Made by a program: the position numbers and the translations under genes. A stretch of DNA of 36,824 bases from a virus (taxonomy: Duplodnaviria > Heunggongvirae > Uroviricota > Caudoviricetes): the IMG/VR virus record IMGVR_UViG_2585427781_000006; one strand, given 5' to 3'. Positions 7,799 to 26,746 of this stretch are shown here, one piece after another. Positions within the stretch are counted from its first letter, which is position 1; each line of letters begins with the position of its first letter. The notes beneath the pieces are model-generated. The model did not search any database. It worked only from the letters and a program-made list of their open reading frames with translations, and had not been told where the DNA came from.

Positions 7799-8249
7799 GA
7801 GTTTGGGCAACGAGTGAAATGAGGTGTAAGGTGGGCGGTCATTTTGATAAGTGATCGTCCACTTTGTGTCAGAACCTGATGTTTGTTGTACATTCGGACG
7901 AATAGGCGGCGTTGTTTGCTTTAAAAATAAAACAGGAACACTTTGAGAAAGTGAACAGGTGTATTTATTTGTTGCTGATGAATGAGAGTAACTCTAATTT
8001 GGATAATTAGCTTGATAATAGGTCAGACGAAAATAATATTCCAGCACACTTTTGGTCGCAACAGGCATTAGTTAATTTTAAGTGATAAATTTTTATCCAT
8101 AAATTAACACTAGTGTGTCATCTAGCGAAACCGAATCGCTTTAACTCATAACTTGAAGTTGAATCAGTGGGGTAGCAGTAGGCATGCCGGAACTGATAAA
8201 CTGTGCAGAAGGCTAAACATTCATTCACTCGTGAGATAGTAGCTAAATT

Positions 8250-9116
8250 ATGCAAAGAATTATTCCTGATAAAAATTGGTGGGAAAAAGAGCGTATTAAT
8301 CGTAAAGCATCATCAATATGCCCATATGCTAGTTCATACAGATGTCCTCGATACTATCAGAGTGTAGTTTTGCTCTCAAGCATCAATGTGATAGCTGGTA
8401 TGGCAACTAGGAAAGAAAAAGAGTTGGGCGAATTTTGGGAAAGAACCACTTTCTCATCTTTATGTGATGAAGAAGTCCCTACAGTTACTACAAAAGAATA
8501 TGGCGGCCTTGCATCAGTTAGTAATTTTTGCCCAGAAATATCATTTAGATATTTACACTACTACGCCGATTATATGTGTAAATATGTTGATGAGATAGAT
8601 CAGGACACTGGCAGGCGTATTGCGGAAAAAGATAATTTAGAAAATGATTGGAAATATACATGGATGTCAGTCAATCCTAAATTTTATTTAGATTGCGATG
8701 TTTTTGAAACTGTCAAAAATTTCAATGAAGAATTGGCTAGTGATTACTTAAAAAGATTGCACCCAAATATCGTTCAGCAAATAGATAGAATGAATAATTG
8801 CTTGGATAATAATGATCCGGCAGGTGCACTGCACGCAGCCTCTAATATTTTAGAAACTATGGCTAAGGAAATCACTCAAAACCCGAATGTGGCAAATGAG
8901 TCATTGGGTGGTTTTTTTAAACAGTTCGAAAAAATGTCAAAATTACCTAAGAATCTTATTGATGCTGTTAAAGATATTTATGATTTACGCAACAAATTAC
9001 CTACTGCTGGACACGGAAGCTTGAACAAGCCTGAATTGACTATGGTAGAAGCTATAACTATTGCGGCAATGACAAAGGCGATTTTAGAAATTGAATATCG
9101 AAGCAAAGCCATCTAA
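8250..9116 (+). CDS. Hypothetical accessory protein (AT-rich cargo gene)
   Basis: 288 aa ORF in a strongly AT-rich island. N-terminal Cys pairs (CPYASSYRCPRY). No catalytic motif recognised with confidence. Confidence 0.6.
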   Translation: MQRIIPDKNWWEKERINRKASSICPYASSYRCPRYYQSVVLLSSINVIAGMATRKEKELGEFWERTTFSSLCDEEVPTVTTKEYGGLASVSNFCPEISFRYLHYYADYMCKYVDEIDQDTGRRIAEKDNLENDWKYTWMSVNPKFYLDCDVFETVKNFNEELASDYLKRLHPNIVQQIDRMNNCLDNNDPAGALHAASNILETMAKEITQNPNVANESLGGFFKQFEKMSKLPKNLIDAVKDIYDLRNKLPTAGHGSLNKPELTMVEAITIAAMTKAILEIEYRSKAI

Positions 9117-9243
9117 CAAACCAAATTATGTGGTTCAAATTCCCGCTACACTTCTGTGTTGCCGCCAGCGTCTACTTATCGCTGTGAGTTCAACGGGTGA
9201 TGATGCGTTAGAGATCTCTGAATCGATTGAAGTCTAAGGTTGT

Positions 9244-9265
9244 CAGGGCTGTAACAGCAGCCCTG
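9244..9265. terminator. Perfect 8-bp hairpin between the convergent cargo genes
   Basis: cagggctg-taacag-cagccctg. No U-tract on either side. Confidence 0.3.
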
Positions 9266-9365
9266 TGTCATGAATGGATTGCATATTAATTGACGAAGAA
9301 CAGACTAATATCATCGATAGCTGTTTTCAAAAATAGACCAATAACAAACTGAGATGTTATCGTAT

Positions 9366-10019
9366 TCATTTCGATGATTGATCCAGATGTGTATATAACC
9401 ATTGAAAGAGTTTTCTAATTTTTGTGATAGTATCTTTTAAATAATTTAAGGAGATTATTATATTATTTTCATTGTTTAATGAAAGAGTAGGTGTTTTATC
9501 AATGATATTTTTTAAGGCTACAGCTGTGCTCATTTTTTTAATGTCTCCATTAGCATGAACTATGCAATTCCTTACTTTGTTAAACTCTGTCATGAATTGC
9601 CACTCTTGTGACAGGCCAAAGTTTATATCCATTAATTTTGTTAAATATCTTTTTGCTTTGTGGATGCCATCACCATTAAAATCGGTTACTGATATATTGG
9701 TGTTTACAATCCTTTGACATATATTGCAATAGTCGTTTAGGTTGTGCTCTAAGCATGAGTATAAAGATACCAAAGCAGATTTATTAAAAATATTTGGTTG
9801 TATGTTAACTAAGAAATCATATTGCTCTGAATAATAGTCTTCTAAGTAATTAATATAATCGTCAGGAGCATTCTTTTTTTCATCTTCATATGCTTTTTTT
9901 AATTCCGATAAGTCAACTCTGTTTTGGCCGCCTGCTCCTAGGATATATTTTTCGAAATCATCAATCTGCGCTTCAAGTGAATATCTTGATAGCTGTGCGA
10001 AAAGTTTGTATTTACTCAT
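9366..10019 (-). CDS. Hypothetical accessory protein with HEPN-like R-N-x3-H motif (candidate Abi-type RNase)
   Basis: 217 aa ORF in the AT-rich island. Motif KVRNCIVHANGD matches the canonical HEPN R-[N]-x3-H signature in spacing and context. Confidence 0.6.
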   Translation of the reverse strand: MSKYKLFAQLSRYSLEAQIDDFEKYILGAGGQNRVDLSELKKAYEDEKKNAPDDYINYLEDYYSEQYDFLVNIQPNIFNKSALVSLYSCLEHNLNDYCNICQRIVNTNISVTDFNGDGIHKAKRYLTKLMDINFGLSQEWQFMTEFNKVRNCIVHANGDIKKMSTAVALKNIIDKTPTLSLNNENNIIISLNYLKDTITKIRKLFQWLYTHLDQSSK

Positions 10020-10362
10020 CGGTATGCCATTCCTTTTTAATTATAAACCTTTGGGTTAAAAGGTGCTGAAAATAGTAACTCATTATTTTTGTTTGTAAAG
10101 GGGGTATTGTTTTTACTAGATCAAGATAAAACAATGGGAATATCCGCTTTTCGCTCACAGCGGACTTTCATCTTTGTAAACCCGTATGATTAGCTTTTCA
10201 GCGGTCATTCAGATACGGATTTACGCTTCCCTTGGCTGTGCATGACTATGACGCATGAGATCGCATGATCGTTAGAGGATCGTTTTTGCTGAGGCCAGCC
10301 AGAACTGGCGTGCTTTTGCTTATGTCGTGCAGGTGCATGAAAACCACTACATAAAGCGGGCA

Positions 10363-10381
10363 GGCGTGGCGGGGATACGAG
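10363..10381. other. Probable cos site (cohesive end region)
   Basis: GGCGTGGCGGGGA at 10363..10375 matches the first 13 nt of the 186 cohesive end as recalled (GGCGTGGCGGGGAAAGCAT; P2 GGCGAGGCGGGGAAAGCAC). Lies in a 500-bp non-coding GC-normal stretch. Confidence 0.45.
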
Positions 10382-10410
10382 CGCGCGCTAAGTCATATAA
10401 GAGTTATATA

Positions 10411-10439
10411 TTGATTTGATTGCTGGACATGCATACAGT
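10411..10439 (+). promoter_or_regulatory. Candidate promoter of the kinase/HIRAN operon (TTGATT-17-TACAGT) with degenerate LexA-like box
   Basis: -35 TTGATT 10411..10416, 17-nt spacer, -10 TACAGT 10434..10439. CTGG-N8-ACAG at 10423..10438 is one mismatch from the LexA box core. Shares the 13-mer ATGCATACAGTAT with the tum promoter region. Confidence 0.3.
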
Positions 10440-10533
10440 ATCGCTCTATCATCTAATAAATCTTAGAGTATTTGACAATGTTTGGATAAAATGGAACCTA
10501 ACTTATTCATAATCCGCTAAACAGGGATGTCAG

Positions 10534-11448
10534 ATGCCATACCAATTGGTAGAGCTTAGCCCCGTAGCTAACGATCTTGAACAGTTAGGAACCAAAGAGA
10601 AGTTTTGGTTCTATTTCTCCGATGACACTGTAAATTTGCAGTTGTTTAAGTACTCTAGGCCAGGTACTGGCGAGCATTGGTCTGAAAAGTGTGCTGCTGA
10701 GTTATGTCATTTGCTTAACATTCCACATGCTAGCTATGATTTGGCGCGATACAATGGTCGATTCGGTGTGGTGACTCAGAATATCATTCCATCTGGTTTC
10801 CGGATGGTAATGGGAAATGAAGTGCTTCACAGTTCGACATTCGATTATCCAGGGCCTTTACAAGCCGGGGAAAAGCCGGTAAGGGTCAGAGAACACACTG
10901 TCACAAGGGTATTGGGTTGTTTAGATAGGGAATCTATCAAGCCTCCTCCGAGTGTATATGATCTAACCGGGCTAAATGCAGCAGATGTATTTTGTGGATT
11001 TTTGATGCTCGATGCACTTGTGAGTAATCAAGATCGCCATCATGAAAATTGGGCGATCATGCTTAACAATGAAACTGGTGAGCAGTTTTTGTGTCCAACA
11101 TACGATCATGCCGCTAGTTTAGGAAGGGAGATGTTAGATGATGAGCGTAACGAACGGCTTAATACTAAAGATAAAAATCGACAAATCCCATGTTTTGTAA
11201 GAAAAGCTCGCTCTGAGCTATTCAAAGCAAAAACTGATAAAAAGCCCTTGCTGACCGTTGAAGCATTTCAACATGCAGTTGAAGGGAGAGTTGCCGCTCG
11301 CGACCATTGGTTAGGTAAGTTGAGCGTTTTAACAGAAGATTCCATTACAGATGTGTTTAACCAAGTGCCTTCATCGTGTATATCCGACAGTGCACGTAGA
11401 TTTGCAACGTTAATGGTAATGGAAAATCGCAGAAGGTTACTAGAATGA
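10534..11448 (+). CDS. HipA-family Ser/Thr kinase, short form (kinase core only)
   Basis: 304 aa. Gly-rich loop-like LGTKEKFWF near the N-terminus (compare HipA VAGAQEKT), catalytic loop SNQDRHHENWA (compare HipA TDGHAKNFS) and CPTYDHAAS (compare HipA TPFYDIIS). Lacks the HipA N-terminal domain. Confidence 0.7.
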   Translation: MPYQLVELSPVANDLEQLGTKEKFWFYFSDDTVNLQLFKYSRPGTGEHWSEKCAAELCHLLNIPHASYDLARYNGRFGVVTQNIIPSGFRMVMGNEVLHSSTFDYPGPLQAGEKPVRVREHTVTRVLGCLDRESIKPPPSVYDLTGLNAADVFCGFLMLDALVSNQDRHHENWAIMLNNETGEQFLCPTYDHAASLGREMLDDERNERLNTKDKNRQIPCFVRKARSELFKAKTDKKPLLTVEAFQHAVEGRVAARDHWLGKLSVLTEDSITDVFNQVPSSCISDSARRFATLMVMENRRRLLE

Positions 11449-12185
11449 CTAATACAAACTCCGTTTACGTCGCATGGCAGGCACCAGATACCAGAGACTG
11501 GCATGTTGTTGGTAACTTGCAAGAGCGCAAATCGGGGTATGTTTTCAGGTATACCAAAGGTGCTCTTAAATCTACTAAATTTACAAAGTTTAGCGGCATG
11601 AGTGATGTTCGTGAAACTTATGTTTCGGAAGAATTGTTTCCTCTTTTTAAAAATCGCCTTTTATCACCGAGACGTCCAGAGTATCCGAGTTTCATTAAAT
11701 GGCTTGGATTTGAAGAAGATAAGGTAAATCCTATCGATATTCTTGCTCGCTCGGGAGGCTTACGAAGCACTGATCAGCTGCAGATTTTCAAAAAAATTGA
11801 TGTTGATTCTGATGGTAACTTTGAGCATTTTTTCTTCTTACATGGACTTGGTTACTTAAATAGCTTAGCTAATGCTCGTGTATCTGAATTGAAACCGGGG
11901 CAAATTTTGCGTCTTTGCTTGGATCTTCAAAATGAATACGATGGGGATGCTGTTGTCGTTCGTGCAGATAAACCAGCTGAAATCGTTGGTTACTGCCCTA
12001 GGTATTTAAGTAATGATATCAAGAAGATGTTATTGGATGATCCAAAATCAATCACTTTAACGGTCGAAAAGATTAGCGATGATGCTCCTCATAACTATCG
12101 GTTATTATGTAAATTATCAGGAGTACTAAGCCAAGCCTGTCAATCGACGCTGATTCCTCAGGATGAGTTTGAACCTATTGAGTAA
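11445..12185 (+). CDS. HIRAN-domain protein with HipA-N-terminal-like (HipS-like) region
   Basis: 246 aa, start overlapping the kinase stop (ATGA). C-terminal LRLCLDLQNEYDGDAVVVRADKPAEIVGYCPRYLSNDIKKMLLD fits the HIRAN signature. N-terminal half shows the pattern of the HipA N-domain (LFKNRLLSPRRP ... PIDILARSGG versus HipA FFDNLLPDSP ... PFDLLSEIGRD). Confidence 0.6.
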   Translation: MTNTNSVYVAWQAPDTRDWHVVGNLQERKSGYVFRYTKGALKSTKFTKFSGMSDVRETYVSEELFPLFKNRLLSPRRPEYPSFIKWLGFEEDKVNPIDILARSGGLRSTDQLQIFKKIDVDSDGNFEHFFFLHGLGYLNSLANARVSELKPGQILRLCLDLQNEYDGDAVVVRADKPAEIVGYCPRYLSNDIKKMLLDDPKSITLTVEKISDDAPHNYRLLCKLSGVLSQACQSTLIPQDEFEPIE

Positions 12186-12191
12186 ATGAAG

Positions 12192-12215
12192 AAAAGCCAC
12201 CAAACGGTGGCTTTT
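12192..12215. terminator. Bidirectional intrinsic terminator between the HIRAN gene and the portal gene
   Basis: Perfect 10-bp stem aaaagccacc-aaac-ggtggctttt with T-rich flank; A/T runs on both strands. Confidence 0.6.
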
Positions 12216-22871: not shown

Positions 22872-23469
22872 TCTGCTGCCACCGGGTTCAACTTCACTGG
22901 AGCGACGACTGGCGCAAACCTGCAGTGGGATTTCTGATCTGCAGGTGCCGCTGCGTGACTTGTGGAATCCGGCAACCTGTCCGGTCAGTTTCCTGCCTTA
23001 TCTCGCCTGGGCGTTCTCTGTGGATCGCTGGGATGAGGGCTGGACAGAAAGCGTCAAGCGCCAGGTGGCGAAGGATGCTTTTTATATTCATCAGCATAAA
23101 GGGACCACCAGTGCCGTGCGGCGGGTGGTGGAGCCGTTCGGCTTTCTGATCCGCATTATTGAGTGGTGGCAGACCGGAGAGGCACCGGGCACGTTTCGCC
23201 TGGATATCGGCGTGCAGGACCAGGGCATAACTGAAGATACCTATCTGGAACTTGAGCGACTGATAAGTGATGCCAAACCATGTAGCCGTCACATGATCGG
23301 CATGTCCATCAATCTGCAGACCAGCGGCCCGCATTGGGTGGGAGCCGCCAGCTATCTTGGCGAAGAAATCACGATCTATCCGTATATCAACGAAACGATT
23401 ATTTCCGGTGGCACCGCGCATGAAGGTGGGGCGGTCCATGTTATTGACACAATGAGAGTGAATCCATGA
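22864..23469 (+). CDS. I: Baseplate/tail protein gpI
   Basis: 201 aa, follows J as in P2. Confidence 0.82.
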   Translation: MNSLLPPGSTSLERRLAQTCSGISDLQVPLRDLWNPATCPVSFLPYLAWAFSVDRWDEGWTESVKRQVAKDAFYIHQHKGTTSAVRRVVEPFGFLIRIIEWWQTGEAPGTFRLDIGVQDQGITEDTYLELERLISDAKPCSRHMIGMSINLQTSGPHWVGAASYLGEEITIYPYINETIISGGTAHEGGAVHVIDTMRVNP

Positions 23470-24881
23470 GCACAAAATTTTATACCCTGCTGACGGATAT
23501 TGGCGCGGCGAAACTTGCCAGCGCCGCCGCGCTCGGTGTGCCGCTAAAAATTACCCATATGGCGGTGGGCGATGGCGGCGGAGTATTGCCAACGCCGGAC
23601 GCAAAGCAGACGGCACTGGTAAATGAGAAACGCCGGGCTGCGCTGAATATGCTTTATATCGACCCGCAGAACAGCAGCCAGATTATTGCTGAACAGGTGA
23701 TCCCTGAAAACGAGGGCGGTTGGTGGATACGTGAAGTGGGCCTGTTTGATGAGTCCGGGGCATTGATTGCCGTGGGCAACTGCCCGGAAAGCTATAAGCC
23801 GCAACTGGCTGAAGGCAGCGGGCGCACCCAGACCGTGCGCATGGTGCTGATTACCAGCAGTACGGACAATATCACCCTGAAAATCGACCCTGCTGTAGTG
23901 CTGGCAACCCGCAAGTATGTGGATGACAAGGCACTGGAGCTGAAGGTGTACGTGGATGACCTGATGGCAAAACATCTTGCCGCACCGGACCCGCATTCAC
24001 AATATGCACCCAAAGAAAGTCCGACGTTTACCGGAACCCCCAAAGCGCCAACGCCAGCGGCGGGGAATAATACCACGCAGCTTGCGACCACCGCATTTGT
24101 TCAGGCGGCACTGACGGCTCTTATTAATGGTGCGCCAGCCACGCTGGACACGCTGAAAGAAATAGCCGTAGCCATTAACAATGATCCGAAATTCAGTACC
24201 ACCATTAACAATGCGCTGGCACTGAAAGCGCCGCTGTCGAGTCCGGCACTCACCGGAACGCCAACAGCCCCCACGGCGGCGCAGTCGGTCAACAATACAC
24301 AGATTGCCACTACGGCTTTTGTGAAATCGGCGATTGCAGGAATGGTGGGTTCTGCACCTGCGGCCCTAGATACACTGAACGAACTGGCGGCGGCGCTGGG
24401 GAATGATCCGAACTTTGCCACGACAATGCTTAATGCGCTGGCAGGTAAACAACCGCTGGACAATACGCTGACTAATTTGAGTGGAAAGGATGTAGCTGGT
24501 CTTCTCGCATACCTTGGTTTGGGAGAAGCGGCAAAACGGAATGTAGGTAACGGGCAAAACCAAATTCCGGATATGGCGGCGTTTGCCAGTTCACTTTCAT
24601 CAACGGGTTTTCAAAAACTCCCTTCAGGTCTGATTATTCAGTGGGGTATTGTCAGTGGAGCATCAAACTATACGGTGACTTACCCGGTAACATTCCCAAA
24701 TCGTTCACTTGCGCTGTTGGCTGTGCCACATACAACGTCGGTGGCTGGTATATCTGCAATGGGCATAGCGAACTGTTCTGATATCAGCAAATCACAGTTC
24801 TATATAATTGTTGGCGGTATATCTCAGGGAGAAATTGTCAAATATGAAAGGTCCTGTTTTTGGGTAGCAATCGGTGTATAG
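23466..24881 (+). CDS. H: Tail fibre protein gpH (constant N-terminal part plus variable C-terminal cassette)
   Basis: 471 aa. C-terminal part from about 24540 lies inside the invertible segment. Confidence 0.85.
   Translation: MSTKFYTLLTDIGAAKLASAAALGVPLKITHMAVGDGGGVLPTPDAKQTALVNEKRRAALNMLYIDPQNSSQIIAEQVIPENEGGWWIREVGLFDESGALIAVGNCPESYKPQLAEGSGRTQTVRMVLITSSTDNITLKIDPAVVLATRKYVDDKALELKVYVDDLMAKHLAAPDPHSQYAPKESPTFTGTPKAPTPAAGNNTTQLATTAFVQAALTALINGAPATLDTLKEIAVAINNDPKFSTTINNALALKAPLSSPALTGTPTAPTAAQSVNNTQIATTAFVKSAIAGMVGSAPAALDTLNELAAALGNDPNFATTMLNALAGKQPLDNTLTNLSGKDVAGLLAYLGLGEAAKRNVGNGQNQIPDMAAFASSLSSTGFQKLPSGLIIQWGIVSGASNYTVTYPVTFPNRSLALLAVPHTTSVAGISAMGIANCSDISKSQFYIIVGGISQGEIVKYERSCFWVAIGV
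24518..24539. repeat. Left inverted repeat of the invertible tail-fibre segment (contains the invertase crossover site)
   Basis: TTTGGGAGAAGCGGCAAAACGG; exact reverse complement at 26020..26041. Flanking ACCTTGGTTT resembles the AAACC-NN-GGTTT core of gix/hix/cix sites. Confidence 0.65.
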
Positions 24882-24889
24882 GTATATCT

Positions 24890-25285
24890 ATGATTTATTT
24901 CTCAAAATCGACTAATGGTTTTTTCTTTGATGGTATAAACAGCGACATGCCTGCTGACATTGTTGAGATAAGTACAGACTTATACAATGAATTAATTGCC
25001 GGACAGCAGGAAGGGGGGAAATTAATCACGTCAGATGAAAATGGTTTACCGGTACTGAAATCTCCGGCGATTGATTATGTCGCACGTGCTGAAAATCAGC
25101 GAATGCAGTTACTTGCTCATGCCGATAATGTCACAGCTGACTGGCGGGTGGAATTAATGCTTGGTGATATCAGCTGTACAGATAAAGAAAAACTATCTGC
25201 CTGGATGGACTACAAAAAAGAAGTAAAAGCCGTCGACACTTCGACGGCTCCTGAGATTAGCTGGCCTGAGTTACCGGAGGTGTAG
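24890..25285 (+). CDS. Tail fibre assembly protein (Tfa, active orientation)
   Basis: 131 aa from ATG 24890; C-terminal ISWPELP motif shared with the opposite-strand copy. Confidence 0.75.
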   Translation: MIYFSKSTNGFFFDGINSDMPADIVEISTDLYNELIAGQQEGGKLITSDENGLPVLKSPAIDYVARAENQRMQLLAHADNVTADWRVELMLGDISCTDKEKLSAWMDYKKEVKAVDTSTAPEISWPELPEV

Positions 25286-25676
25286 GCCATTCAATATCTG
25301 GCGCACCGGAAGTATCGACCAGTTCCAGTGCGTCCAGGTAATCCAGCCACAAATTATATTGTGCCAGTTCCTCACCTTTCAGCCGGCCAATAGCCGCTTT
25401 ACCAGGCCATTGTTTACTGTTCATATAATCGTTGGCCTGTTCAATAAGTATATTTTTCATTCCCTCCGCTTCAGCTATTTCCTGTTCATGTGTCTTCGCT
25501 GGATATTCAGTAAGTACAGGGTAGTTATCCGGGCTATTGATAATAATTTTCCCCGTACTCTGACCATTCATAAGTTCATAATAAAGAGCATCTTCAATAT
25601 CGAAAGCATCATCGGGAATATCGCTGTTGTTTTCAGAGAAAAATCCCTGAACAGATGGGGACCATTTCATTTTCAT
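25257..25676 (-). CDS. Tail fibre assembly protein (Tfa', alternative orientation)
   Basis: 139 aa, convergent with and overlapping the 3' end of the plus-strand tfa; C-terminal IEWPTPP motif. Confidence 0.75.
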
Positions 25677-26041
25677 AATTTCCCAATTCCTAAAATATGG
25701 ACATCATCAGCCTTACGGGCATTCCAGGTGACAATTACATCGGTAGAGTGACGATTAACTGAGATTGCGTATGCTTCGTTAGTCGAGCCAGAAACTTTTG
25801 TGGCAAACACAGCAAACAGGACACCAAATGACTGGGGCCATTTATAGCCTGACAGCTGATAATTACCATTATCCAGTGTTACAGCTTTGACTGCTGCACT
25901 TGATGGAATCGTCAGCCACTGGAGTATCAACCCTCCTGGCAAAAGTTGTTTTCCATAAAAATCCCTCACACCACTAAATGAAACCATATCCGGTATCTGA
26001 TTTTCCCCTGTTCCCACGTCCCGTTTTGCCGCTTCTCCCAA
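25673..26041 (-). CDS. Alternative tail-fibre C-terminal cassette (Hv'), expressed only after inversion
   Basis: Minus-strand frame encodes [23 protein letters not shown], paralogous to gpH residues [23 protein letters not shown]. No independent N-terminal domain or RBS. Confidence 0.65.
26020..26041. repeat. Right inverted repeat of the invertible tail-fibre segment
   Basis: CCGTTTTGCCGCTTCTCCCAAA, reverse complement of 24518..24539; flanking AAAACCAACGTTT resembles the invertase crossover core. Confidence 0.65.
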
Positions 26042-26113
26042 ACCAACGTTTATGAAAATGCAGAGATAACGGCTAACTGGCATCATCCCTGGTTTTTATT
26101 CAGGGGATTGATC

Positions 26114-26680
26114 ATGCTTATTGGCTATGTACGCGTGTCAACAAATGACCAGAACACCGATTTGCAACGTAATGCACTGAACTGCGCGGGATGTGAGCGG
26201 ATTTTTGAGGACAAAATCAGTGGCACTAAGTCCGACAGACCGGGACTGAAAAAACTACTCAGGACACTATCGGCAGGAGACACGCTGGTTGTCTGGAAGC
26301 TGGACAGGTTGGGGCGCAGTATGCGGCATCTCGTTACGCTGATAGAAGAGCTGCGCCAGCGTGGCGTGAATTTCCGAAGCCTGACTGACAGTATTGATAC
26401 CAGTACCCCAATGGGCCGTTTCTTTTTTCATGTCATGGGGGCCCTGGCTGAAATGGAGCGCGAACTAATAGTTGAACGTACCAGGGCGGGGCTTGCTGCA
26501 GCTCGCGCCAAAGGCAGAGTAGGTGGACGCCGTCCTAAGTTGACCACCGAACAGTGGGCACAGATTGGACGTTTACTCGAGGCCGGAGAATCAAGACAGC
26601 GTATTGCACTGATTTTTGATGTAGGTATTTCCACAATTTATAGAAAATTTCCGGTAAATAAGAGCAATGAATCTCCCTGA
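26114..26680 (+). CDS. Serine recombinase, DNA invertase (Gin/Pin/Cin/Hin family)
   Basis: MLIGYVRVSTNDQNTDLQRNAL with catalytic Ser context and C-terminal HTH; near-identical in pattern to Gin/Pin as recalled. Confidence 0.92.
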   Translation: MLIGYVRVSTNDQNTDLQRNALNCAGCERIFEDKISGTKSDRPGLKKLLRTLSAGDTLVVWKLDRLGRSMRHLVTLIEELRQRGVNFRSLTDSIDTSTPMGRFFFHVMGALAEMERELIVERTRAGLAAARAKGRVGGRRPKLTTEQWAQIGRLLEAGESRQRIALIFDVGISTIYRKFPVNKSNESP

Positions 26681-26728: not shown

Positions 26729-26746
26729 TGTGTGAATAACGGTACA
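26729..26746. promoter_or_regulatory. Ogr/Delta-type late promoter dyad TGT-N12-ACA (upstream of FI)
   Basis: TTTGTgtgaataacggtACAAC, about 80 nt upstream of the sheath gene start. Confidence 0.5.

Follow-up and report, generated by a model that had tools for sequence, protein, structure and literature searches.

Is the tail-fiber region of a P2-like prophage, in which inverted repeats lie beside a gene for a serine recombinase, a working genetic switch, and if so, to which class does it belong? We addressed this question for a stretch of 36,824 nucleotides from a virus of the class Caudoviricetes (IMG/VR record IMGVR_UViG_2585427781_000006), referred to below as the window. Here, the gene for the tail fiber gpH, which ends in a variable tip (Hv), is followed by an assembly chaperone gene (tfa), by a second chaperone gene (tfa') and a second, silent tip (H'v) on the opposite strand, and by an invertase gene (Table 1). 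From the sequence alone, an initial annotation had described this arrangement as an invertible segment. Our analysis indicates that it is very probably a functional switch that works by inversion between two sites and belongs to the Gin/Cin/Pin/Hin class; within that class, it is a Pin (e14-type) module. The anatomy of the locus, the in-frame fusions in both states, the presence of both states in near-identical prophages, and the membership of the enzyme and its sites in this family are demonstrated in the sections that follow.

Both orientations occur in near-identical prophages

The proposed segment (24514..26046) was flipped in silico. In the flipped state, the constant part of gpH runs in frame into the other tip, giving a fiber of 473 amino acids (aa) whose stop codon overlaps the start of tfa'. 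A 473-aa "phage tail protein" (WP_032215957.1) is annotated in E. coli N17. Both the 471-aa and the 473-aa fibers are annotated in RefSeq genomes, and the fiber is in frame in both states. The expectation that inversion would swap the fiber tip together with its chaperone was thus borne out by the in silico flip and by natural genomes carrying either orientation.

In a search of 5,426 complete E. coli genomes with unflipped and flipped queries of 2.9 kb, the window's orientation was recovered at full length and 99.9% identity in strains N24 and MS20657, and the flipped orientation at full length in N17 and N64 (99.9%) and in LF82 (98.0%). At a coverage of at least 80%, 11 genomes matched in the window's orientation and 21 in the flipped one. 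In N24 and N17, both of which are cerebrospinal fluid isolates, the prophage occupies one and the same position in the chromosome. Their aligned sequences (42,901 bases) differ by six single-nucleotide polymorphisms and by an exact inversion of 24514..26046; once one copy is flipped in silico, the segment shows no mismatch. The window's invertase gene and crossover sites are nucleotide-identical to those of N24 and N17; between positions 23900 and 26800, only 24002, 25175, and 26090 differ from these strains, the last of them lying in the spacer. A further case is phage Cartapus (prophage 4 of LF82), in which a cassette 99.7% identical to that of the window is inverted relative to its own gpH and invertase genes. 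As judged from these genome comparisons, inversion is recent, precise, and repeated, and it occurs in prophages that carry exactly this invertase allele.

An assembly artefact was considered as the cause of the orientation differences and was rejected: the repeat is just 26-75 bp long, and the inversion is base-perfect in complete genomes.

One further copy was encountered in E. coli FORC_081 (NZ_CP029057.1, 1701074-1704802), where the locus is in the flipped state and is broken by an IS26-family transposase; two recombinase family proteins are annotated beneath the match.

Crossover sites of the pix type bound the segment

The initial annotation had reported perfect 22-bp inverted repeats. 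The repeats are real; their true length, however, is 26 bp, and the right arm had been placed one base off, as 24518..24539 (TTTGGGAGAAGCGGCAAAACGG) pairs with 26021..26042 and not with 26020..26041. The maximal perfect repeat is nested in a 75-nt repeat that is 80% complementary (24502-24576 and 25984-26058). By arithmetic from the window length, a perfect 26-bp inverted pair is expected by chance about 1.5e-7 times in 36.8 kb. As had also been described, the repeats lie within the coding sequence for a shared peptide, GLGEAAKR, which both of them encode: it occupies residues 351-358 of gpH and recurs in the minus-strand open reading frame (ORF) 25673-26086.

Exact matches to the 14-nt core TTCTCCCAAACCAA occur twice in the window, on opposite strands, at the two repeats. 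Further core sites were sought across the window; four other matches were obtained, each with three mismatches, and the total of six is within chance expectation. A multi-site shufflon of the R64 Rci, p15B Min, or enteropathogenic E. coli (EPEC) three-repeat type was rejected, since only two sites are present and the recombinase is of the serine type.

Around each core lies a 26-bp site. The two sites are inversely oriented and imperfectly palindromic and have an asymmetric central dinucleotide in common, and the half-sites of both fit the TTnTCnnAAACC pattern of the cix, gix, and pix sites. We compared them with the sites of known systems, as taken from annotated records. Those of the K-12 element e14 are CTCTCGAAAACC-TT-GGTTTGGGAGAA and TTCTCCCAAACC-AA-CGTTTATGAAAA; those of P1 are cixL, CAATCCTAAACC-TT-GGTTTAAGAGAA, and cixR, TTCTCTTAAACC-AA-GGTATTGGATAA, with crossovers annotated at the central dinucleotide; the Mu-type gix sites are TTATCCAAAACC-TC-GGTTTACAGGAA and TTCCTGTAAACC-GA-GGTTTTAGATAA. 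The right site of the window is identical at 26/26 positions to the e14 site that adjoins pinE in K-12 (pixR). The left site shares its inner half-site and central dinucleotide with e14 pixL of K-12, and its outer half-site carries an ATACC variant, as found in the outer half of the functional P1 cixR.

Between the two arms, perfect identity stops exactly at the central dinucleotide of both pix-like sites. This pattern would be expected if every exchange took place at that dinucleotide, as the outer half-sites would then remain unswapped. The GC content of the segment is 43%, compared with approximately 56% in its flanks.

The invertase is a Pin orthologue with a putative enhancer

The adjacent gene had been called a Gin/Pin-type serine invertase. 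Its product does belong to this family, with matches to the Pfam domains Resolvase (2.5e-53) and HTH_7 (8.5e-14), and it contains the motifs YVRVSTNDQ, with the nucleophile Ser9, and WKLDRLGRS; the start codon lies 68 bp past the right crossover dinucleotide. Protein identity is 86% to PinE of K-12, 78% to Cin of P1, and approximately 74% to Mu-type Gin, so that the nearest relative of the enzyme is e14 Pin, not Gin. Among solved structures, the best match is PDB 3uj3 ("DNA-invertase"; 1.9e-92 over residues 1-184), which we take to be Mu Gin.

Positions in the window protein were related to those of Hin by an offset of minus 1, which rests on an alignment with PDB 1hcr and on the chain start of that entry, presumably Hin residue 139. 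With this offset, K46, K47, R50, Q150, R153, and L154 of the window protein, all of which are the same in PinE and Cin, are equivalent to Hin K47, K/R48, and K/R51 of helix B and to Q151, R154, and L155 of the first helix of the DNA-binding domain, the residues described as unique to Fis/enhancer-dependent invertases (McLean et al., PMC3798978).

The enhancer of P1 is annotated inside the cin gene, at nucleotides 19-90. Its positional homologue in the window (26132-26203) is identical at 56/72 positions to P1 and at 63/72 to pinE. We rate this putative Fis enhancer as probable.

Each fiber tip is paired with its own chaperone

The initial annotation had placed between the repeats a plus-strand tip with its tfa gene and a minus-strand tip with its own tfa', and the ORFs are indeed arranged in this way, with Caudo_TAP domains in both chaperones. 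In gpH, the N-terminus matches Phage_tail_fib (5.4e-65) and the plus-strand tip matches Gp53-like_C (5.6e-14); this tip, Hv, also matches PDB 4mtm, a "putative tail fiber protein", at 7e-5. The two tips can be aligned over approximately 55 residues, 58% of which are identical, and no local alignment extends beyond this part. The chaperones Tfa and Tfa' are 34% identical; their genes are convergent, and each tip is followed by its own chaperone. No NCBIfam model scored above its cut-off for any of the five proteins.

A strong terminator-like hairpin, read on the minus strand from 25252 to 25225, directly follows the tfa' stop codon and lies within the last part of the coding sequence of tfa, the convergent gene. 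No comparable plus-strand terminator was found after tfa; the scan yielded four candidates where 2.4 were expected, which is at noise level. We speculate that termination of the late V operon, or read-through from it toward the invertase gene, may differ between the two orientations.

A separate observation concerns an ATG at 26086 on the minus strand, in the non-inverting DNA that separates the right crossover site from the invertase gene. The ORF that begins there reads through the site into whichever tip is resident: it spans 137 aa in the window, and in the flipped N17 it corresponds to a 135-aa "gp53-like domain-containing protein". Neither a promoter nor a convincing ribosome-binding site was seen for this ORF, which probably arises as a by-product when the silent cassette is annotated.

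Table 1 Features of the inversion module, in coordinates of the 36,824-nucleotide window
Feature	Coordinates	Strand	Length	Remarks
gpH tail fiber, window's orientation	23466..24881	+	471 aa	
gpH constant part	23466-24513			
gpH variable tip, Hv	24516-24881			
Left crossover site, pixL-like	24502..24527		26 bp	TTCTCGCATACC-TT-GGTTTGGGAGAA; central TT at 24514-24515
Left arm, perfect inverted repeat	24514..24539		26 bp	
Invertible segment	24514..26046		1533 bp	Includes both central dinucleotides
tfa, assembly chaperone for Hv	24890..25285	+	131 aa	Pfam Caudo_TAP 5.3e-24
Intrinsic-terminator-like hairpin	25225..25252	-		12-bp stem and T run; predicted function
tfa', chaperone of the alternative tip	25257..25676	-	139 aa	Pfam Caudo_TAP 3e-22
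H'v, silent alternative C-terminal tip	25673..26044	-		Mechanically called ORF extends to 26086, outside the segment
Right arm, perfect inverted repeat	26021..26046		26 bp	
Right crossover site	26033..26058		26 bp	TTCTCCCAAACC-AA-CGTTTATGAAAA; central AA at 26045-26046
Serine DNA invertase, Pin orthologue	26114..26680	+	188 aa	Catalytic Ser9
Putative recombinational (Fis) enhancer	26132..26203			Inside the 5' end of the invertase gene

Weighing of alternative explanations

Several points weigh against a fully working switch with two distinct tips. The case for switching in the source strain itself comes from its sister genomes, and the proposal that the two tips would recognize different receptors or host ranges draws on analogy. 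The H'v tip matches Gp53-like_C weakly (0.0039, below the Pfam cut-off), and a sequence search of the PDB returned no solved relative of it. Other points concern the putative Fis enhancer. In an alignment of seven invertase genes (window, pinE, cin, gin, pro483, P88, and SJ46), the identity of synonymous codons peaks in the first ~50 codons (0.55 for codons 7-30 vs 0.43 for the rest), which fits an extra non-coding constraint, but this excess is modest, and both coding constraint and mosaicism confound it. The Fis consensus (G..YR.WWWWW.YR..C) was also scanned over the first 150 nt of four invertase genes (that of the window, pinE, cin, and gin); neither a consistent pair of sites nor two convincing sites in the enhancer homologue emerged, a result that is uninformative because Fis sites are too degenerate. 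Finally, no sigma-70-like promoter for the invertase gene was found between 26047 and 26113.

The orientation differences might owe nothing to an invertase and stem instead from homologous recombination that depends on RecA and takes place between the arms of the 26-75 bp inverted repeat, since the breakpoints fall within identical sequence and cannot be mapped to the dinucleotide. We regard this as highly improbable: perfect identity stops at the central dinucleotide of canonical pix sites, as repeated site-specific exchange would predict but homologous recombination would not, a dedicated invertase is adjacent, and both orientations are common among otherwise near-identical prophages. In addition, 26 bp of perfect homology is a poor substrate for RecA. 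Equally improbable is that the switch of the source genome is a frozen relic, locked in the window's orientation through, for instance, lost expression or lost Fis-site function. A single assembled sequence does show a single orientation, and the missing promoter would be in keeping with such a loss, but the sites, spacer, and invertase gene are nucleotide-identical, save for position 26090, to those of N24 and N17, which are themselves oppositely oriented.

The question of which enzyme catalyzes the flipping is a different one. A resident invertase of the same family, such as PinE, PinQ, or PinR of cryptic prophages, might act in trans, with the local gene dispensable or poorly expressed. The identity of the right site with e14 pixR would allow this, as would the reported ability of PinQ, from the Qin prophage, to invert the e14 segment in trans (PMC12529663); sequences related to our query are present in 2801 of the 5426 complete E. 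coli genomes, and the promoter search for the local gene came back empty. The local gene, however, is intact, with all checked catalytic and regulatory residues present, it is conserved together with the cassette in many phages, and it occupies the canonical cis position with an enhancer homologue. A switch driven solely from elsewhere is therefore unlikely in our assessment. Invertases acting in trans could nevertheless work alongside the local enzyme, which would be compatible with a functional Pin-type switch.

Proposed mechanism and implications

By analogy with Hin, Gin, and Cin, a Pin-type switch at this locus would operate as follows. Invertase dimers would bind the two 26-bp sites, and synapsis of the sites would take place on an enhancer, bound by Fis, within the 5' part of the gene for the invertase itself. 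Double-strand cuts with a 2-nt stagger would be made at the central AA/TT of each site, half of the resulting tetramer would rotate by 180 degrees, and the ends would be religated, with 1.53 kb of DNA inverted. Both the dependence on Fis and the enhancer and the subunit-rotation chemistry are assigned here from these relatives. With the left site located within gpH, the constant part of the fiber (350 N-terminal residues) can be joined to either tip, that is, to Hv with tfa (471 aa) or to H'v with tfa' (473 aa). A population of lysogens would then release virions with two receptor-binding tips, a form of bet-hedging on host range.

For annotation, this means that gpH should be described with two alternative C-termini and that the minus-strand 137-aa "hypothetical protein" is the silent tip and not a separate gene. 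Virions from such lysogens probably mix two receptor specificities, which is relevant to searches for indicator hosts and to phage typing. The inversion may also serve the lysogen itself, for example by masking receptors against other phages; this possibility is weaker than that of cassette exchange (see below) and is suggested by analogy, receptor masking having been reported for StfE2 of e14 (PMC12529663).

Prophage context

The window contains a P2-like prophage whose left end carries a cut integrase gene and a CI repressor gene. The late genes follow the order V, W, J, I, H ... FI, FII, with Pfam Tail_P2_I and sheath domains, as in Peduoviridae. From 12257 to the right end, the window is 98-99% identical to the prophage of E. 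coli N24, which has an annotated P2-family capsid and ogr and adjoins ybjL. The flanks of the invertible segment are approximately 96% identical to Cartapus (Peduoviridae, Elveevirus).

The statement in the initial annotation that classical P2 lacks the feature holds, as the slot that separates the V operon from the pF promoter/FI holds, in reference P2, fun(Z) and no invertase gene. What it missed is that the layout is not unusual among P2-like phages. In the window, a TGT-N12-ACA box at 26729-26746, approximately 77 bp upstream of the FI start, resembles what we take to be the Ogr-type activator site of the P2 pF late promoter. If this box is the pF site, the distal half of the segment, together with the invertase gene, looks like the occupant of the inter-operon slot held by fun(Z) in P2, with the invertase gene at its very end.

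The cassette may have a history of its own. It is more conserved than its flanks relative to Cartapus (99.7% vs ~96%), and homology to carriers with another fiber context (vB_EcoM-613R3 and strains ANT and S3) begins inside the left site, at 24503-24514. The Cartapus homology edge at 24514 marks the inversion breakpoint only, as the Cartapus flanks align to the opposite strand. In strain ANT, the same cassette lies beside pinE in an e14-like, Mu-type tail module and encodes identical Tfa proteins (WP_000639074.1 and WP_000782984.1). Together, the conservation of the cassette, the homology edges in the left site, and a GC content of 43% in a 56% backbone suggest horizontal exchange of the cassette at the site. 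We tentatively raise the possibility, which we consider the less probable outcome, that the crossover sites serve as portable junctions at which whole tip-chaperone cassettes are exchanged between unrelated tail modules (P2-like and e14-like/Mu-type), possibly by invertases acting between co-resident elements. Cassette exchange as an idea is not new and, even if proven, would hold modest interest.

Elsewhere in the prophage, a low-GC island (8000-12200; 34-42% GC vs approximately 56% in the structural genes) lies between the replication endonuclease and portal genes, at the position of the P2 tin/old-type accessory hotspot. Two overlapping plus-strand ORFs at 10534-12185 encode proteins of 304 aa (weak HipA_C match) and 246 aa (HIRAN, 1e-13) that match a candidate defense system in PADLOC (PDC-M03A, 1.4e-121, and PDC-M03B, 3.4e-93). 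The N24 prophage has a P-loop NTPase at the island position in place of PDC-M03A/B. The two other ORFs of the island, 8250-9116 (+, 288 aa) and 9366-10019 (-, 217 aa), had no Pfam match; the latter gave a weak PADLOC match to RTasHEPN (1e-5).

Comparison with known systems

The Gin/Cin/Pin/Hin class of inversion systems has been textbook knowledge since the 1980s. The initial annotation had likened the locus to the Mu G and P1 C segments, and every structural element of the Mu-G, P1-C, and e14-P switches is present, the enhancer as a putative element. Its closest relative is the P segment with PinE of e14 in K-12, with which it shares the gene order (constant part of the fiber, tip, tfa, reverse tfa', reverse tip', invertase) besides the similarities in enzyme and sites described above. 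Two differences separate them: the switch of the window resides in a complete P2-like prophage, with a collar-fiber N-terminus of the P2 gpH type, and the K-12 P segment is longer (~1.8 kb) and carries other tips and chaperones (stfP/tfaP/tfaE/stfE).

With Mu G/Gin and P1 C/Cin, the locus shares the underlying logic of a constant Sc part with Sv/Sv' tips, U/U' chaperones, 26-bp sites, and, putatively, a recombinational enhancer within the gene for the invertase; its invertase has 74-78% protein identity with Mu Gin and P1 Cin. Its inverted repeats have the crossover sites at their outer edge, an arrangement shared with P1 cix. With AA as central dinucleotide, it agrees with cix and pix and departs from gix, which has GA/TC. 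The segment is shorter, at 1.5 kb compared with approximately 3 kb for Mu G and 4.2 kb for P1 C, and in P1 the cin gene is on the opposite side, where cixL overlaps the 3' end of cin.

Among P2-like phages, Cartapus has the same order, V-W-J-I-H-tfa-tfa'-tip'-invertase-FI-FII, and its invertase is annotated as "DNA-invertase, Mu phage Gin invertase homolog" beside two tfa genes; the deposited sequences of Cartapus and LF82, unlike the window, are in the flipped state. The same layout is found in pro483 (genus Peduovirus), P88, KP12, and 500465-1, with other cassettes in pro483 and P88, and a DNA invertase is annotated within it in Cartapus, pro483, P88, and KP12. The paper on Cartapus does not mention inversion and reports that no recipient strain was found (PMC9928086). 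A literature search on Peduoviridae invertases and host range together returned nothing.

Two published cases concern inversion in P2-like prophages, and their likeness to the locus is drawn here from the published descriptions. Phase variation by inversion was demonstrated by sequencing and polymerase chain reaction (PCR) in two P2-like prophages of EPEC E2348/69, one of them a simple two-variant system, and inversion of the homologous e14 segment was likewise shown by sequencing and PCR (Goldberg et al. 2014, PMC4272514). One of the EPEC loci has three repeats and four variants, whereas the window has two sites. In Fels-2 of Salmonella, strains LT2 and LT7 differ in orientation within the tail-fiber gene adjoining the pin homologue fin (Zaworski et al., PMC7953296). 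Conceptually, nothing is new here: the switch is an ordinary member of a long-known class, one that is already known in P2-like phages as well.

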